This document shows, one piece after another, positions 2,978 through 64,000 of a stretch of 64,000 bases of DNA. The DNA is from an uncultured Candidatus Saccharibacteria bacterium (GTDB lineage Bacteria; Patescibacteriota; UBA1384; XYA2-FULL-43-10; 1-14-0-10-43-13), in NCBI GenBank assembly GCA_964364265.1, contig CAYILA010000001.1:6808-70807 (forward strand), read 5' to 3'. The notes beneath the pieces were generated by a model, which ran no database searches, had not been told where the DNA came from, and saw nothing but the letters and a program-made list of their open reading frames with translations. Position numbers and translations under genes: made by a program. Position 1 is the stretch's first letter. The number at the start of each line of letters is the position of its first letter.

Positions 2978-3385
2978 ATGAAGATTAGGGATTTATTTTC
3001 AACCGCCAAAGAGAAAATTGAAAAAGTGATGCCGATGACATTCGGAAATTTTGTGGTTTTTTTCCTGATTCTCTATTTCATAACTCTGGTCACACGCATG
3101 ACATGGAACAATTATCAATCGAACAAATCGATTGACGCGGAGGGGCAGAAGATTGATGATCTGACCCAAGAATTGACTTTGCTTCGATATCAGATTTCTT
3201 ATTACAAAACTAATTCGTTCAAGGAAAAAGAGGCGAGGGAAAAACTGGCTTACAAAGCTCCCGGGGAACAGGTTCTGATGATGCCGCTCGATACCCCGGC
3301 CGAGTCGGTTGCGGATGAAGGTAACAGCGATCCTCGGATTAAAATTCCCAATCAACATCTCTGGCGGTCGTATTTTTTTAAATAG
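2978..3385 (+). CDS. septum formation initiator family protein (FtsB/DivIC-like)
   Basis: A single N-terminal TM, a coiled-coil segment and the motif KEKEAREKLAYKAPGEQVL, which resembles the FtsB/DivIC EEEAR..LG..KPGE signature. Confidence 0.6.
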   Translation: MKIRDLFSTAKEKIEKVMPMTFGNFVVFFLILYFITLVTRMTWNNYQSNKSIDAEGQKIDDLTQELTLLRYQISYYKTNSFKEKEAREKLAYKAPGEQVLMMPLDTPAESVADEGNSDPRIKIPNQHLWRSYFFK

Positions 3386-59865: not shown

Positions 59866-60429
59866 ATGGCATTTTTATACCATAAGTTTACCCGCAAAGC
59901 GCTGCTCTCTCTTATCCTTGCTTTAGGCGTTGTTTCATTTTGGCTTTTAACTCCATATTTAATTTCTTGTCTTATGGTTACTATTGCAGGCGTTCTTGGT
60001 ATTTTTTTTATCTGGTATGAAATCGCCCCAATTTATCTTTTGATTTTTTTGTCCTTCACTTCAGCTTACGCATTTTATGGCTTATTTTTCCAGTACAATT
60101 TACCGACGATTCTGATAATGATTTCAATTCTGGTAATTTTCGGTTATATTTTTACCTATATGGAGCAGAGAACCGGGATTTTAGGAAATCGGCGCCTTAT
60201 TTATCTTCTGCTATTTTCAATAATTGTTCTGGAAGTTTTCTTGGCCTTGAGCTATTTTCTAATCAATCCCCTTAACCAGAGTTTAGTCATAGCCGCAGTC
60301 TGCTATATATTTTCCGGTTTTTGTTTCTCCGTTTTGGCAAAACAAGATGATTCGGATATTCGGACATATCTCGGTATCGGTTTTTCGACGATCTTTGTAA
60401 TCTTGCTTTCTTCCAGTTGGAGTGTATAG
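59866..60429 (+). CDS. hypothetical polytopic membrane protein
   Basis: 5-6 TMs. No motif recognised. Confidence 0.45.
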   Translation: MAFLYHKFTRKALLSLILALGVVSFWLLTPYLISCLMVTIAGVLGIFFIWYEIAPIYLLIFLSFTSAYAFYGLFFQYNLPTILIMISILVIFGYIFTYMEQRTGILGNRRLIYLLLFSIIVLEVFLALSYFLINPLNQSLVIAAVCYIFSGFCFSVLAKQDDSDIRTYLGIGFSTIFVILLSSSWSV

Positions 60430-60470
60430 TAATATATAATTGGCAATCAATAACTTATTAAGGAATTAAA

Positions 60471-61490
60471 ATGAAGGAAAAGGTCAGGGCGAGCATAAAA
60501 ACAGTCGGCGATTTCTTGAGCAGAATATTTTTTCATATCAGGGTAAGGATTTTGAAAAAAAGAGGCGGGGAGATCGATATTATAATCGATCCGAATAAAG
60601 TACCGATATCGAAAAGAATCTTTACCGGTCTTTTTTATCTCATATTGCTGGTCGGTTTGATTGAGACCGTCATCGCAGTAATGATCTATGGATTCCAGCG
60701 AGAAGACAAGGCGACAAAGGCGGTTGCAGATGTGGTTCCTTATCCGACCGCCGTCACTTCCTTCGGTTTTGTCTCTTACGGCGATTATTTATCGGAAAAG
60801 GCCTACATCCATCATTTCTACGATTCAACCCAGCAGAAAGATGTTGCATACGAAGAAATCGATAAGCAAATCCTGGATCAATTGATCGAAAACCGCCTTA
60901 TCTCTTACGAAGCGTTCCGATATGGAGTAAAGGTTAAAAAAGACGAGGTCAATCAAACCTTTTCTGCGATTTCGGATCAAAATGGCGGCGACGAAAAGGT
61001 CGGGAAAGTACTTGAAGACCTATACGGTCTCAATATCAAATCATTCAAAAAGTTAGTCAAGGAGCAACTCCTTCGGGATAAGATTAACAACGAATTGATT
61101 GCCAGAGTTACGGCAAAACACATCTTGGCAAGAGTCGACAAAAGCGCTCCTCAAGATCAAGTCGATGCGGCTAAAACAAAAATTGATGCCATTTTGGCCG
61201 AGGTTAGGGGAGGCGCCGATTTTACCGAGACGGCAAAATCAAAATCCGAAGATATCGGCAGTGCCGAACAGGGCGGGGAACTGGAACCGTTTGCCAAGGG
61301 CGAGATGGTTGAACCTTTCTCTGAAGTCGCTTTTTCGACATCGGCCGGACAAATTTCCGACCCTGTTAGAACTGATTTCGGTTGGCATATCATTAAAGTC
61401 GAATCAAGAACCGGTAAGATTGAGATGACATTTACGGACTGGCTGGATAGTTTAAAGAAAAACGGATTGATTTGGAAATTAATAAAATGA
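60471..61490 (+). CDS. peptidyl-prolyl cis-trans isomerase, parvulin type (PrsA/SurA-like), membrane-anchored
   Basis: An N-terminal TM, a chaperone-like helical region and the parvulin core HILARV ... FGWHIIKVE. Confidence 0.8.
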   Translation: MKEKVRASIKTVGDFLSRIFFHIRVRILKKRGGEIDIIIDPNKVPISKRIFTGLFYLILLVGLIETVIAVMIYGFQREDKATKAVADVVPYPTAVTSFGFVSYGDYLSEKAYIHHFYDSTQQKDVAYEEIDKQILDQLIENRLISYEAFRYGVKVKKDEVNQTFSAISDQNGGDEKVGKVLEDLYGLNIKSFKKLVKEQLLRDKINNELIARVTAKHILARVDKSAPQDQVDAAKTKIDAILAEVRGGADFTETAKSKSEDIGSAEQGGELEPFAKGEMVEPFSEVAFSTSAGQISDPVRTDFGWHIIKVESRTGKIEMTFTDWLDSLKKNGLIWKLIK

Positions 61491-61619
61491 TCCAAAACAA
61501 AAAGTTAATTATTACCTTAGCGGCATTAGTTTCGATCGGTTTTGCCATTTACGGTATCTGGCTGGCTCAAAAATCAAATAATTCAATTCCTAATCGCCAG
61601 ACAGAAGAAATCAGGTAGA

Positions 61620-62555
61620 ATGAACTATCAAAATATATTAAAGAAATCTTTCAGTATCATTTGGAAAAACCGCTTTATGTGGCTGCTGGGTTTTTTGGCC
61701 GGAGGATCATTTTATCAGGGCGGCAATTATTCATTTAATGACTCTGATTTTGAAAAATTAAAAGATTGGAAAAATTTGCCCGATTCCAACAATGTGGCGG
61801 AGGCGTCGGTCAAAAGCGCCGAGAAAGTGTTGGGCGATTCGGTTTCGTCGGCGATGAGCAGTACCGCCTTTTGGGTGATTTTGTTTTTCCTTATTATCAT
61901 AATAATAATTTTCATTTATCTTCACTTTACGGCTAGGGGCGCGATTATCAAATCAGCCGAACAGTTAGATGCTGGAAAAAGCCTGGGTCTGAAAAATGCT
62001 TGGGCTTTCGGGCGACAGTATTTCTGGCGGGTATTTATTTTTTCGTTGGTTATGGCCGGAATCATACTCTTGGGATTATTAATTGCGGCCACCCCAATTG
62101 TTCTTCTGGCCATATTCGAACAAACTCTCGCGGCGATTATTTTTGGAATTATATTTTTCTTGGTCTTCCTGGTCTATCTTATTTACCTTTCGCTTGTTTC
62201 GACCTATGCCGAGAGGATATTGATTTTGGAAAATAAGAGAGCGATTGAATCGATAAAATTGGGAATCAAATTTTTCAACAAGAGTTGGAAGACTATTGCG
62301 GTCGTCTATTTGATTGTGATGGCAATATCATTAATCGCGGCCATGGTTGTAATCATCGCCATTATCGTTCCAATTCTGTTTCTAACCGGAATCGGCGCCT
62401 TATTCTACCTAATCAGCTCTGGTCTGACTTTCATATACGCCACAATCGCCATTTTGGCGCTTGTGGTATTATTTTGCACTCTGATGGGCATGCTCAATGC
62501 TTATATTTCAACGGTTTACACGCTTACTTACAATGAACTAAAAAGCTCGGACTGA
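61620..62555 (+). CDS. hypothetical polytopic membrane protein
   Basis: The start is set at MNYQNILKK (61620). The upstream part of the ORF 61542.. has no RBS support. Multiple TMs. Confidence 0.45.
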   Translation: MNYQNILKKSFSIIWKNRFMWLLGFLAGGSFYQGGNYSFNDSDFEKLKDWKNLPDSNNVAEASVKSAEKVLGDSVSSAMSSTAFWVILFFLIIIIIIFIYLHFTARGAIIKSAEQLDAGKSLGLKNAWAFGRQYFWRVFIFSLVMAGIILLGLLIAATPIVLLAIFEQTLAAIIFGIIFFLVFLVYLIYLSLVSTYAERILILENKRAIESIKLGIKFFNKSWKTIAVVYLIVMAISLIAAMVVIIAIIVPILFLTGIGALFYLISSGLTFIYATIAILALVVLFCTLMGMLNAYISTVYTLTYNELKSSD

Positions 62556-62671
62556 TTAAGAAAAAAATAAAGACAATAATACCGGAATTACAATATTGCC
62601 GTAAAATATCCAATTCAAAAAACCGTCTGTCCATATTTAACGGACAAACGGTTTTTTATAGCGGAAGCGAT

Positions 62672-62696
62672 TCGCCGTGGCGACCGTTCTAACCAA
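62672..62696 (-). repeat. fragment of the tRNA-Asp D-arm (positions ~16-25) fused to the palindrome TCGCCACGGCGA
   Basis: ggcgaccgttctaaccaa is shared with 63078-63095, and tcgccgtggcga is a perfect 12-nt palindrome. Confidence 0.5.
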
Positions 62697-62733
62697 ACAT
62701 AAAAACAGGCAAGGACAAACAATCCGACTGACT

Positions 62734-62809
62734 GGCGGGAGCGACCGGACTCGAACCGGCGACCTCCACAGTGACAGTGTGGCGTTCTAACCAACTGAAC
62801 TACGCCCCC
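62734..62809 (-). tRNA. tRNA-Asp (anticodon GTC)
   Basis: The reverse complement gggggcg ta gttc agttggtta gaac g ccaca ctGTCac tgtgg aggtc gccgg ttcgagt ccggt cgctccc g cca folds as a cloverleaf. It is flanked by an 11-bp inverted repeat, aatccgactga (62721-62731) and tcagtcggatt (62818-62828). Confidence 0.85.
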
Positions 62810-63065
62810 GTTCTGAATCAGTCGGATTGCCGAGGATTCGTTTCAATTCCTCTCTTCCCTTACCTGTTTTGAAATACATTTCTCGCCGTACGGCCTCCGG
62901 TCGAGTTTCAAATCTCTCTGAATATACTAACTTGAATGGTTTTGTAAGTCGTGTGTATTTACTTTGACCGAAATTATGTTCACAGATACGCTTGTCAAGA
63001 TTACCGGTTGAGCCAGTGTAAAACCTTTGATTGACCTCGCTTTGTAAGACATATACATAATGCAT
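62787..63065 (-). CDS. GIY-YIG nuclease family protein (YhbQ-like) whose 3' end reads into tRNA-Asp
   Basis: MHYVYVLQSEVNQRFYTGSTGNLDKRICEHN matches the GIY-YIG core. The last 8 codons (...ERGRSSVG) are encoded by tRNA-Asp positions 1-23. Confidence 0.75.
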   Translation of the reverse strand: MHYVYVLQSEVNQRFYTGSTGNLDKRICEHNFGQSKYTRLTKPFKLVYSERFETRPEAVRREMYFKTGKGREELKRILGNPTDSERGRSSVG

Positions 63066-63067
63066 GG

Positions 63068-63114
63068 CGACCTGTCGCCGCGGCGACCGTTCTAACCAAC
63101 TGAACTACGCCCCC
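63068..63114 (-). pseudogene. truncated copy of tRNA-Asp positions 1-25 fused to the 14-nt perfect palindrome GTCGCCGCGGCGAC, immediately upstream of the GIY-YIG start codon
   Basis: 63089-63114 is identical to the first 26 nt of the intact tRNA-Asp (62784-62809). The palindrome lies at 63074-63087. Confidence 0.6.
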
Positions 63115-63149
63115 GCGCTTTGTTATAGTAACATTTTTTGAATCTTAAA

Positions 63150-64000
63150 TCAAGCTATGTACGATTGCAGGGTTAATGTTACCTTTTTTGTCTGGGTGTT
63201 GCCAAGCTGTTGAAACATGATCTTAATGATTTTCTCTCTCGGTGTTAATTTGTTCATGCCGTATCCGGTATGCCTTCTCTTGTTGTTGTAGTATTGAAGC
63301 CAAAGCTGTAGTTTGTACTCTAATGTCTCCATATCATCTTGGAAGGAGCACTGGCCGTAGAAGAACCTGGTCTTGAGTGTCCGGTGATACCGCTCGATCT
63401 TGCCGTTCTGGGTCGGAGCATACGGATCATTCTCAATTAGTTCTAACCCACGGTTCTCACAATACCACTTGAGTAACTTTCCGTATCTGTTGTCTACTCT
63501 GATCCGTCTGATTGGGAAGGGCGATCGTTCCAAGATGTAGTTAATTAGTTTGATGGCATTCTTGGCATTGTCTTTGTCGCACATCATACCGAATACATAT
63601 CTGGAACAGTCATCGATAGCGGAGAAACAGACAATGTCTCTGCTTCGGCCAAAGGGGTAAGAAGCATCAAGCTGAAGCTCCTGGCCGGGGTAGTCAAGAC
63701 AGTAGAGTGTCGGTTCTTTCTTTGGGATCGGGGTGTAATCCAGGTTGTATCTGATATGTTTCCGTTTCAGGATGCGCCAGATGGTAGTCGGATCAAGGGC
63801 GATGGAATGATCATCGAAGAGTTTGTCGGCCAGCTCGATTGGTCCCATGAAGGGATTAAACATGGCCGTATCGCAGACGATCTCCTCGATCCACTCCGGT
63901 GTTCGGTTCCTTGGCGGTGAACCTACTTTGGAACCTGGCTTAACCGGAATCAGGGCTTGGATGCCGGACTCTTTGTACCGGCTACGCAACCGGCTGAAGG
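63150..64000 (-). CDS. DDE-type transposase (rve integrase core, IS481-family-like), N-terminus beyond the window
   Basis: LQLDASYPFGRSRDIVCFSAIDD ... RRIRVDNRYGKL ... PYAPTQNGKIERYHRTLK gives D...D...E with the PQ.NG.IER signature. The frame is still open at the window edge. Confidence 0.75.
   Translation of the reverse strand, partial: FSRLRSRYKESGIQALIPVKPGSKVGSPPRNRTPEWIEEIVCDTAMFNPFMGPIELADKLFDDHSIALDPTTIWRILKRKHIRYNLDYTPIPKKEPTLYCLDYPGQELQLDASYPFGRSRDIVCFSAIDDCSRYVFGMMCDKDNAKNAIKLINYILERSPFPIRRIRVDNRYGKLLKWYCENRGLELIENDPYAPTQNGKIERYHRTLKTRFFYGQCSFQDDMETLEYKLQLWLQYYNNKRRHTGYGMNKLTPREKIIKIMFQQLGNTQTKKVTLTLQSYIA

Follow-up and report, generated by a model that had tools for sequence, protein, structure and literature searches.

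We analysed the tRNA-Asp locus at the end of a stretch of 64,000 nucleotides (nt) from an uncultured Candidatus Saccharibacteria bacterium (assembly GCA_964364265.1, contig CAYILA010000001.1, positions 6,808 to 70,807), which is called the window from here on. At this locus a small gene for a GIY-YIG nuclease stands next to an intact tRNA-Asp gene, and pseudo-copies of the same tRNA, each interrupted by a palindrome, lie on both sides. Coordinates are given in plus-strand numbering and the features of the locus sit on the minus strand, where the order from 63153 to 62617 is promoter, 5' pseudo-half, palindrome, remnant of tRNA positions 45-52, nuclease open reading frame (ORF), left stem arm, intact tRNA, right stem arm, 3' pseudo-half and terminator. 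The 5' pseudo-half is named P, the intact tRNA-Asp(GTC) T, and the 3' pseudo-half P'. Loci used for comparison carry L numbers. The features are the following:

63125-63153, minus strand: likely promoter, with -35 TTGATT (63148-63153), a 17-nt spacer and -10 TACTAT (63125-63130); called by eye and by homology.
63088-63114, minus strand: P, copy of tRNA-Asp positions 1-27; part of an exact 28-nt repeat.
63074-63087, no strand assigned: palindrome GTCGCCGCGGCGAC in place of the 17-nt anticodon arm; direct reading and recurrence of the palindrome family.
63066-63073, minus strand: AGGTCGCC, tRNA positions 45-52, immediately 5' of the ATG; read against the intact tRNA.
62787-63065, minus strand: GIY-YIG nuclease ORF of UPF0213 type, 92 amino acids (aa); Pfam PF01541, E = 3e-15.
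62858-62870, minus strand: left arm of the outer stem, AAAACAGGTAAGG, within the ORF; inverted repeat I6, 92% complementary, present in the fold.
62818-62829, minus strand: left arm of the stem, CAATCCGACTGA, within the ORF tail; perfect 12-bp inverted repeat, present in the minimum-energy fold.
62733-62809, minus strand: T, intact tRNA-Asp(GTC), probably cassette cargo; ARAGORN, Rfam 70.3 bits.
62720-62731, minus strand: right arm of the stem, TCAGTCGGATTG; perfect 12-bp inverted repeat.
62702-62714, minus strand: right arm of the outer stem, CCTTGCCTGTTTT; inverted repeat I6 and fold.
62659-62696, minus strand: P'; 25-nt repeat of 96% identity, with better-kept homologous copies in L058 and L160.
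62685-62696, minus strand: D-arm remnant of P', TTGGTTAGAACG; part of the 25-nt repeat.
62672-62684, minus strand: palindrome variant of P', GTCGCCACGGCGA; part of the 25-nt repeat.
62659-62671, minus strand: decayed acceptor 3' end of P', ATCGCTTCCGCTA; 11 of 13 bases match the 3' acceptor end of the tRNA.
62617-62657, no strand assigned: probable two-way terminator, a 16-bp hairpin with flanking A and T runs, common to the convergent DUF7544 gene; inverted repeat I1 and fold.
63150-64000, minus strand: neighbour outside the cassette, an IS481-like DDE transposase ORF whose N-terminus lies beyond the window; Pfam rve_3, rve and HTH_32.

The upstream pseudo-copy is part of an exact direct repeat of 28 nt (62783-62810 and 63088-63115), made of tRNA positions 1-27 and one base upstream. 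Since the tRNA sequence resumes at position 45 beyond the palindrome, it is the anticodon arm (28-44) that was exactly replaced by the palindrome, and the ORF begins after position 52. The AGG contained in the 45-52 remnant could act as ribosome-binding site for the nuclease ORF. On the downstream side, D-arm and palindrome recur as a repeat of 25 nt with 96% identity (62672-62696 versus 63075-63099), so that the anticodon arm is replaced by a palindrome in both pseudo-copies. Shuffled windows gave at most one match to either the repeat or the palindrome pattern, and what was observed is far beyond chance. No signal emerged when the upstream pseudo-half was folded as RNA (z = -0.6), and we do not claim this half as a tRNA-like processing signal. 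A search of positions 60000-64000 against Rfam with E up to 1 returned only tRNA, with no intron, ribozyme or other known RNA, and one sub-threshold antisense-RNA match was the tRNA read on the other strand. With no ribozyme match, and with an intact tRNA that is a separate and complete gene, the window does not present a group I intron or an intervening sequence excised by RNase III.

An earlier note, made from the sequence alone, had listed the tRNA-Asp, its fragments, the palindromes, the GIY-YIG ORF, the stem and the transposase, and all of them are present with small corrections. The 5' copy of the tRNA fused to the palindrome is exact and covers positions 1-27 instead of 1-25; the perfect inverted repeat around the tRNA exists and measures 12 bp instead of 11; the overlap of ORF and tRNA is real and comprises the last 7 sense codons plus the TAG stop instead of 8 codons. 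The 45-52 remnant beyond the palindrome, the decayed 3' acceptor end and the second, outer stem are additional to that list. The anatomy bears out the idea of an element carrying only a GIY-YIG gene that disrupts the tRNA-Asp gene, and also that its flanks are palindromes rather than an integrase att site, the repeats being positions 1-27 and D-arm plus palindrome. The insertion point proposed between positions 25 and 26 has to be abandoned, considering that the arm 28-44 is the part replaced in both pseudo-copies and that the ORF starts past position 52.

The protein encoded by the ORF reached 56.7 bits against PF01541 (cut-off 22.6), which places it in the GIY-YIG superfamily, and its nearest solved structures are the UPF0213 proteins PDB 1YWL and 1ZG2 (E = 2e-10 and 5e-10, respectively). 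Residues Y5, Y16, G18, R26, H30, E62, and K66 are kept in 98-100% of 111 relatives, and all the catalytic-type residues are present in the protein of the window; Y5, Y16, R26, H30, and E62 we take to be catalytic from what is established for I-TevI and UvrC. The relatives have about 80 aa and the conservation fades near residue 80. The last 12 residues, with the TAG stop located in the D-loop of the tRNA (overlap 62787-62809), are therefore a read-through tail and no functional fusion, and the fusion of nuclease and tRNA described in the earlier note needs this revision. The stop codon of the ORF is often found inside the downstream tRNA, as in the window, L038, L079, and L159. Cutting by RNase P would then leave a message without stop codon, and it may be speculated that this could hold the levels of the nuclease low. 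No relatives were found among IMG/VR contigs, and phage records contained only 19 weak matches (<60% identity) to the protein of the window; a phage origin is therefore unsupported.

The intact tRNA is enclosed by the perfect 12-bp stem and by the outer 13-bp extension that reaches into the ORF; the fold of 62610-62875 had -113 kcal/mol and z = -7.0. The outer stem was not seen in L058 or L160. A perfect inverted repeat around T is also present in L058 (21 bp), L160 (21 bp), L001 (11 bp), and L161 (at least 7 bp, at a contig end), with sequences that differ between loci, for example TCCG/CGGA in the window versus ACTA/TAGT in L058. The comparable repeat has 7 bp at most around the plain tRNA-Asp of L163, that of L164 and the 13 other tRNA genes of the window. 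This recurrence with differing sequences, and its absence from these plain and other tRNA genes, confirm the stem noticed earlier as a real and conserved feature, and its restriction to cassette-linked tRNAs indicates that it belongs to the tRNA of the cassette. As for its role, the stem could be cut by a double-strand-specific RNase to release the tRNA from the mRNA, could protect the mRNA 3' end or could act at the DNA level.

The proposed promoter lies about 10 nt upstream of the pseudo-tRNA and, by our count, matches 8 of 12 consensus positions. It was not listed by a consensus promoter scan. The proposal is based on homology: TTGATT-17-TA(C/T)(T/A)AT is located directly 5' of the plain tRNA-Asp in L163 and L164 and 5' of the pseudo-tRNA in L058 and L161. 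The location of this motif 5' of P fits P as the putative 5' half of the resident gene.

The palindrome of the window belongs to a family, GTCGCC-N2-3-GGCGAC, of which 26 copies were found in 405 kb of related loci against 0.05 expected; for 25 of these copies the distance to the ORF is at most 400 nt. In pseudo-copies of Asp, Ala, Pro, Val, and Gly tRNAs from Patescibacteria and Phycisphaerales it replaces the anticodon arm, and in an Arg pseudo-copy from Acidobacteriota it replaces only the 5' strand of the anticodon stem. It never lies within an intact tRNA, nor is it found elsewhere in the window, which holds 13 other tRNA genes. The arms are invariant and the centre is variable (GC, AC, GT, TT, AA, TC, CC, TTG). 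In a crude neighbour-joining order the ORFs with this palindrome cluster together, and the type of hairpin and the type of target track the protein clade: in other clades tRNA-Asn goes with TCCCGATGGAATCGGGA, the anticodon loops of tRNA-Leu and tRNA-Glu hold double hairpins, the D-arm of tRNA-Val holds ATCGGCCCAGGCCGAT, and tRNA-Cys is accompanied by multi-hairpin blocks. Taking into account the invariant arms, the variable centre and the hairpin types linked to clades, the palindrome looks like the binding site of a dimeric protein, because a structural RNA hairpin would be free to co-vary; most likely it is a site bound or cut by a dimer of the nuclease. We discarded the palindrome as an empty site for homing of the ORF in this clade, since in the tRNA-type loci GTCGCC and GGCGAC do not border the ORF on its two sides and the palindrome shows no dispersal. 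A CCGCGG restriction-like site, as for Eco29kI, was also considered, but the variable centre shows that conservation does not lie there. In L098 (~473-490) a hybrid palindrome, GTCGCCGCGGCGGA, resembles a recombinant of GTCGCCGCGGCGAC and TCCGCCGCGGCGGA, which have CGCCGCGGCG in common, with the intervening tRNA piece deleted (compare L011, 2566-2600).

The comparison with related tRNA-Asp loci that the earlier note had suggested recovered the uninterrupted arrangement. In L163, whose flanks have 90.7% DNA identity to the window, and in the more distant relative L164, the promoter motif is followed directly by a plain tRNA-Asp, and P, palindrome, ORF and stem are all absent. A different state was found in L162 (ENA ERZ1292627, Hainich H51): over 7134 nt it has 99.97% identity to the window, and the stretch missing from it is precisely 62811-63115. 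These 305 nt correspond to palindrome, 45-52 remnant, ORF and left stem arm, and the junction falls inside the 28-nt repeat. Because L162 retains P' and a right stem arm without partner, we take it to have lost the ORF through recombination of the 28-nt repeats and not to show the ancestral state. Both occupied and empty alleles are therefore represented, by the window on one side and by L162 without the ORF segment and the plain L163 and L164 on the other, although L162 looks secondary and could contain an assembly error. According to the earlier note, the same tRNA fragments in relatives with neither a GIY-YIG gene nor an insertion sequence would have meant ancient tandem duplications; L162 has in fact a downstream copy and no ORF, but it looks like a deletion derivative and not like such a duplication.

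Variation in the number of units was also evident. Loci L069-L078 have one or two [P-ORF] units, or one unit with the ORF deleted, before tRNA-Asp, and L059-L066 have one or two P' units after tRNA-Val. Near-identical strains represented by L072 (2188-2788) contain two tandem units of pseudo-tRNA plus ORF with a period of 313 nt, and L069 (2487-2968) contains one full unit and another in which the ORF is deleted to a few codons. Many contigs of this L069/L072 group end just past the ORF, which suggests that the repeats break the assemblies.

The ORF was searched in one genome per species and in metagenome contigs, to which the contigs of the closest proteins were added. This gave 156 loci with a near-full ORF, 113 after removal of redundancy. 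An intact tRNA on the same strand was present within 150 nt of the ORF in 40 of the 113 loci, where about 1.6 would be expected from the tRNA density more than 500 nt away from the ORF, and in none was it on the opposite strand. About 19 tRNA species are represented among the 40 (20 ARAGORN labels, one of which is a pseudo-tRNA miscalled as tRNA-Gln in L102). Further fragments of the same tRNA were found nearby in 26 of these loci, and in 22 a GC-rich hairpin abuts the end of a fragment. The cassettes come from Patescibacteria, Acidobacteriota, Planctomycetota (Phycisphaerales), Verrucomicrobiota, and Proteobacteria. The protein clade of the window alone sits at Asp, Ala, Val, and Gly tRNA genes and has relatives in several phyla, which speaks for mobility.

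Two observations concern annotation at these loci. The tRNA-Gln(CTG) reported by ARAGORN in L102 (878-953) and L103 (368-443) is a full-length pseudo-tRNA-Val in which the anticodon arm is replaced by a 17-nt hairpin, GGCCGACCTGGTCGGCC; the Rfam tRNA model, searched in L102, rejects it at the gathering score, and copies of this kind can pollute tRNA annotation. On the other hand, a GC-rich and hairpin-rich region follows tRNA-Asp for 165-300 nt in L163 (minus strand, ~165 nt past the tRNA), L058 (3060-3190), and L070 (2900-3140), and ends like a tRNA 3' end in ...ATCCCGCCA or GATCCCGCTAA. None of these three stretches matched an Rfam family with E up to 0.01, and they could represent remains of older cassettes or an RNA not yet described.

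The same 80-aa ORF family is not confined to tRNA genes. It occurs within 23S rRNA genes, some 600 nt downstream of their 5' end (L039/L040, L048, L050, L051, and L052, with the ORF at ~3001-3260 of each locus), where the inserts have helix-extending, co-varying stems (CCCCGCACC/GGTGCGGGG, CCCCTCACCC/GGGTGAGGGG, and CCAGCACC/GGTGCTGG), and in L008 (1005-1250) at the 5' end of the RNase P RNA gene, within a 17-bp inverted repeat. In other clades (L012, L035, L057) the inverted repeat encloses the ORF itself. A subfamily with the fixed ends TTGGCCCGTGAAATAGA-ATG...TTTCACGGGCTGA was repeatedly inserted at one conserved site of four-helix-bundle genes similar to those of 23S-IVS proteins, splitting the host ORF, and the same ends were also seen in unrelated contexts (L083, L088, L092, L101, L104, L138, L014, L053, and L056; also L085, L094, L140, and L142). 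In L021 (2930-3330) a cassette follows codon 10 of the gap (GAPDH) gene: 36 nt with the start of the gene are duplicated downstream, where an intact gene remains, and the truncated upstream copy stops 4 nt before the ATG of the nuclease. This is the same logic of a duplicated 5' part as in the tRNA loci. Finally, L020, L037, L133, L137, L148, and L150 have the cassette in GC-rich inverted repeats inside an apparent tyrosine-recombinase gene, with an HxLRHSFATHLL motif downstream.

A key aspect is whether the intact tRNA is the resident gene or came with the nuclease. In L159, whose protein is 75% identical to that of the window, the 5' acceptor strand of P, GGGGCGT, pairs at 7 of 7 positions with the 3' acceptor strand of P', ACGCTCC, including a G3:U70 pair, which is the mark of tRNA-Ala. 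The stem of T is GGGGCTG/CAGCTCC, and P would mismatch it at two positions. The same pattern was found in L087 with tRNA-Leu, where P and P' are GCCGCCG/CGGCGGC versus GCCGCGG/CCGCGGC in T. P and P' fit each other and differ from T, so the flanking pseudo-halves look like one resident gene that was split by a cassette carrying its own tRNA as replacement; decay of a local duplicate would not give matched changes. The intact tRNA also differs in allele from P' in L079 and L117 and from P in L015. Considering the acceptor match in L159 and L087 and the stem restricted to cassette-linked tRNAs, the intact tRNA-Asp of the window is probably cargo of the cassette, and not a resident gene reconstituted by the insertion as had been proposed in the earlier note. 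A chimeric tRNA-Val stands beside the ORF in L067 (2524-2596): its 5' part agrees with L059, its T-arm and 3' end differ, and its acceptor stem is mismatched (GGACGAC versus ATCGCCC); it is either a recombinant of T with the resident 3' half or an assembly chimera.

We conclude with high confidence that the locus is a selfish, tRNA-associated GIY-YIG cassette. This is built on the observed anatomy and its recurrence, on the split-gene signature in relatives, on the presence/absence polymorphism and on the intact catalytic residues. The comparison points to a widespread class of selfish cassettes, akin to free-standing homing-endonuclease cassettes, in which the nuclease would behave as a homing endonuclease gene, though outside the SegB and I-TevI families. 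We also lean, with some reserve, towards the complete sequence of events, that is, a homing-type UPF0213 cassette that lives in tRNA genes by splitting them, replacing them and spreading by homing; here the place of cleavage, the route of homing and what palindrome and stem do are inferred. The resident tRNA-Asp would have been broken in the anticodon arm, and its halves would now flank the cassette, P (1-27) behind the native promoter and P' as D-arm remnant plus 3' end. Between them would lie the palindrome, the short tRNA remnant, the nuclease ORF, the replacement tRNA-Asp held by its stem, the second remnant and the second palindrome. The whole unit would be transcribed from the tRNA promoter, so that the host promoter would pay for expression and the nuclease would ride on an essential, strongly expressed gene, while the imported tRNA-Asp would keep the host supplied and viable. 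The nuclease would break a tRNA gene free of the cassette, and the tRNA halves would serve as homology arms when repair copies the cassette from the occupied allele. Conserved motifs of the D-arm and the AGGTC/T-arm that border the palindrome may permit rare jumps between tRNA species, and recombination between the 28-nt repeats would remove the ORF again. More tentatively, and with clear doubt, these cassettes could form a distinct class of elements that split and replace, in which a dimeric 80-aa nuclease recognizes its own palindrome and the cassette destroys the resident tRNA and supplies its own copy, making the host dependent by an addiction-like lock, and spreads across tRNA species and phyla by means of the D-arm and T-arm motifs.

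Several points weigh against this interpretation. The mechanism is a comparative one, and cleavage, homing and transcription are predictions. The ~80-aa protein consists of the catalytic core only and, unlike SegB or I-TevI, has no separate DNA-binding domain. T stays in the cassette, and if the target lies within the tRNA the escape of the occupied allele is unexplained. No pseudo-copy at all was found in 14 of the 40 tRNA-linked loci, and L070 has only the order P, ORF, T. L162 has an assembly coverage of 5.9x and may be a misassembly path through the 28-nt repeat. The window is itself uninformative on the origin of its tRNA: with P' decayed and no difference between P and T over positions 1-27, it offers no distinction between resident and imported copies. 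By our count T differs from the tRNA-Asp of L163 at 11 of 77 positions, more than the flanking DNA does; this would fit an import, though as no proof of it.

An origin in place, which we consider unlikely, would have the nuclease land beside the resident tRNA-Asp and its breaks drive duplications like those of SegB, the copies then decaying and gaining palindromes; T would be the resident gene and nothing would have been imported. The exact 28-nt repeat of the window, the tandem [P-ORF] units of L072 and P' units of L059, and the identity of P and T where both are readable in most loci agree with such a process, and SegB is known to cause this type of amplification of tRNA and its own gene (PMC13096335). 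Random decay, however, would not yield the compensatory acceptor strands of P and P' that differ from T in L159 and L087, and it leaves unexplained the differing alleles of L079, L117, and L015, the absence of the stem from native tRNA-Asp genes and the presence of the same palindrome at the same tRNA position across tRNAs and phyla. It is more improbable that the palindromes are small mobile hairpins, similar to REP, MITE or mitochondrial GC-cluster elements, that insert into tRNA arms, with the GIY-YIG protein as a nuclease acting in trans or as a frequent neighbour. Hairpins do stand at various tRNA positions depending on the locus (D-loop, anticodon arm or loop, variable arm, T-loop), sometimes two in one pseudo-copy, their type tracks the protein clade, and in L012, L035, L057, and the 23S rRNA insertions the inverted repeat encloses the ORF. 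But the palindrome is not dispersed, as 25 of its 26 copies adjoin the ORF and the rest of the window is free of it, it never enters an intact tRNA, and mobile hairpins do not account for the replacement tRNA.

The strict adjacency on the same strand, 40 loci to 0, could also suggest a housekeeping enzyme of tRNA or DNA repair or processing, co-transcribed with tRNAs for regulation and with incidental fragments, and UPF0213 proteins do exist as single-copy chromosomal genes without assigned function (PMC7017083). We give this little credit, since the partner tRNA varies by locus, the presence of the ORF varies among near-identical genomes, the family also occurs inside 23S rRNA genes, at the RNase P RNA gene and inside protein-coding genes, and pseudo-tRNA scars accompany the ORF. 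Least credible is that the arrangement is a product of the adjacent IS481-like element, of an integrase-type island or of misassembly of a repeated tRNA. The best NCBIfam match of the transposase is IS481 (NF033577; E = 2e-40, 139 bits versus a cut-off of 224), over profile positions 31-282 with the N-terminus outside the window. Its TGA stop falls within the -35 hexamer TTGATT, so the end of the insertion sequence (IS) abuts the promoter, which together with the arrest of contigs L162 and L163 at the IS boundary could be taken in favour of such a product. Neither this element nor any integrase was found in the related cassette loci examined, for which reason we treat the IS as an independent, unrelated neighbour, and the mobile-element hotspot at tRNA-Asp described in the earlier note is not established. 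Between the repeats of the window there is no tyrosine or serine recombinase ORF, the sole other ORF nearby being the DDE transposase outside them. What is duplicated, along with palindromes, is the 5' part of the tRNA and not the 3' part as in att sites, and independent assemblies from many samples and phyla show the same architecture. It was also observed that L162 (end) and L163 (start), independent contigs from close relatives, stop where the IS481-like element begins in the window (63142-63153); probably the IS is multi-copy and located at the same place in them.

tRNA genes are classic landing sites of islands driven by integrases, and most of the known homing endonucleases come from introns, inteins and phages. 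With integrase-type islands and prophages the cassette has in common the tRNA target, the partial duplication that keeps a working gene and the flanking direct repeats; it differs in having no integrase, in repeats that derive from the 5' part and the middle of the tRNA and not from its 3' end, in a cargo of ~0.4 kb, and in carrying a whole tRNA instead of a reconstituting 3' segment. SegB of phages T4 and T6 is a GIY-YIG homing endonuclease that cuts within tRNA genes and drives a recombination-dependent amplification of tRNA and its own gene (PMC2330249; PMC13096335). It is likewise a free-standing GIY-YIG gene in a tRNA gene cluster, inherited with the flanking tRNA genes and linked statistically to many tRNA isotypes (PMC2330249; PMC13096335), and its published motif RAWTSGAAC is, by our reading, the T-loop on the other strand. 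SegB differs in its ~220 aa with a DNA-binding part, in being phage-borne and in its location between intact tRNA genes; no split resident tRNA, arm-replacing palindrome or stem-enclosed replacement tRNA has been reported for it.

GIY-YIG ORFs were also described in non-intron insertions of rRNA genes of the Candidate Phyla Radiation, which were judged to be outside homing and without mention of tRNA genes (PMC11270868). They agree with the cassette in protein family, host group and lack of an intron ribozyme (PMC11270868), whereas the rRNA insert extends a helix and needs no replacement gene, and its stems co-vary, in contrast to the invariant arms of the tRNA-type palindrome. The closest relatives with solved structures, UPF0213 (E. 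coli YhbQ, B. subtilis YazA, 1YWL, and 1ZG2), and the nuclease domain of the eukaryotic Slx1 are built, like the cassette protein, on this minimal GIY-YIG core. That Slx1 is a nuclease selective for structure (PMC7017083) fits the link of the cassette nuclease with hairpin-forming DNA; Slx1 differs in needing Slx4 and in having a zinc-finger domain, and no mobility has been described for UPF0213 or Slx1 proteins. In a study of the Hainich aquifer, GIY-YIG proteins were among the genes passed from Patescibacteria to other bacteria (PMC12455944). We found no description of tRNA-splitting UPF0213 cassettes in a full-text literature search that covers few subscription journals, so that one may exist elsewhere.

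If the proposed mechanism is true, it would be a third way of exploiting tRNA genes, in which an element of less than one kilobase and without recombinase splits the gene while supplying a spare one and relying on the tRNA promoter. It would explain the pseudo-tRNA fragments and false calls such as the tRNA-Gln of L102 that confuse annotation, as well as the contig breaks at tRNA genes in metagenome assemblies. It would also offer biochemistry a nuclease of very small size whose palindromic partner sequence is defined, and it would give the large UPF0213 family a testable function.

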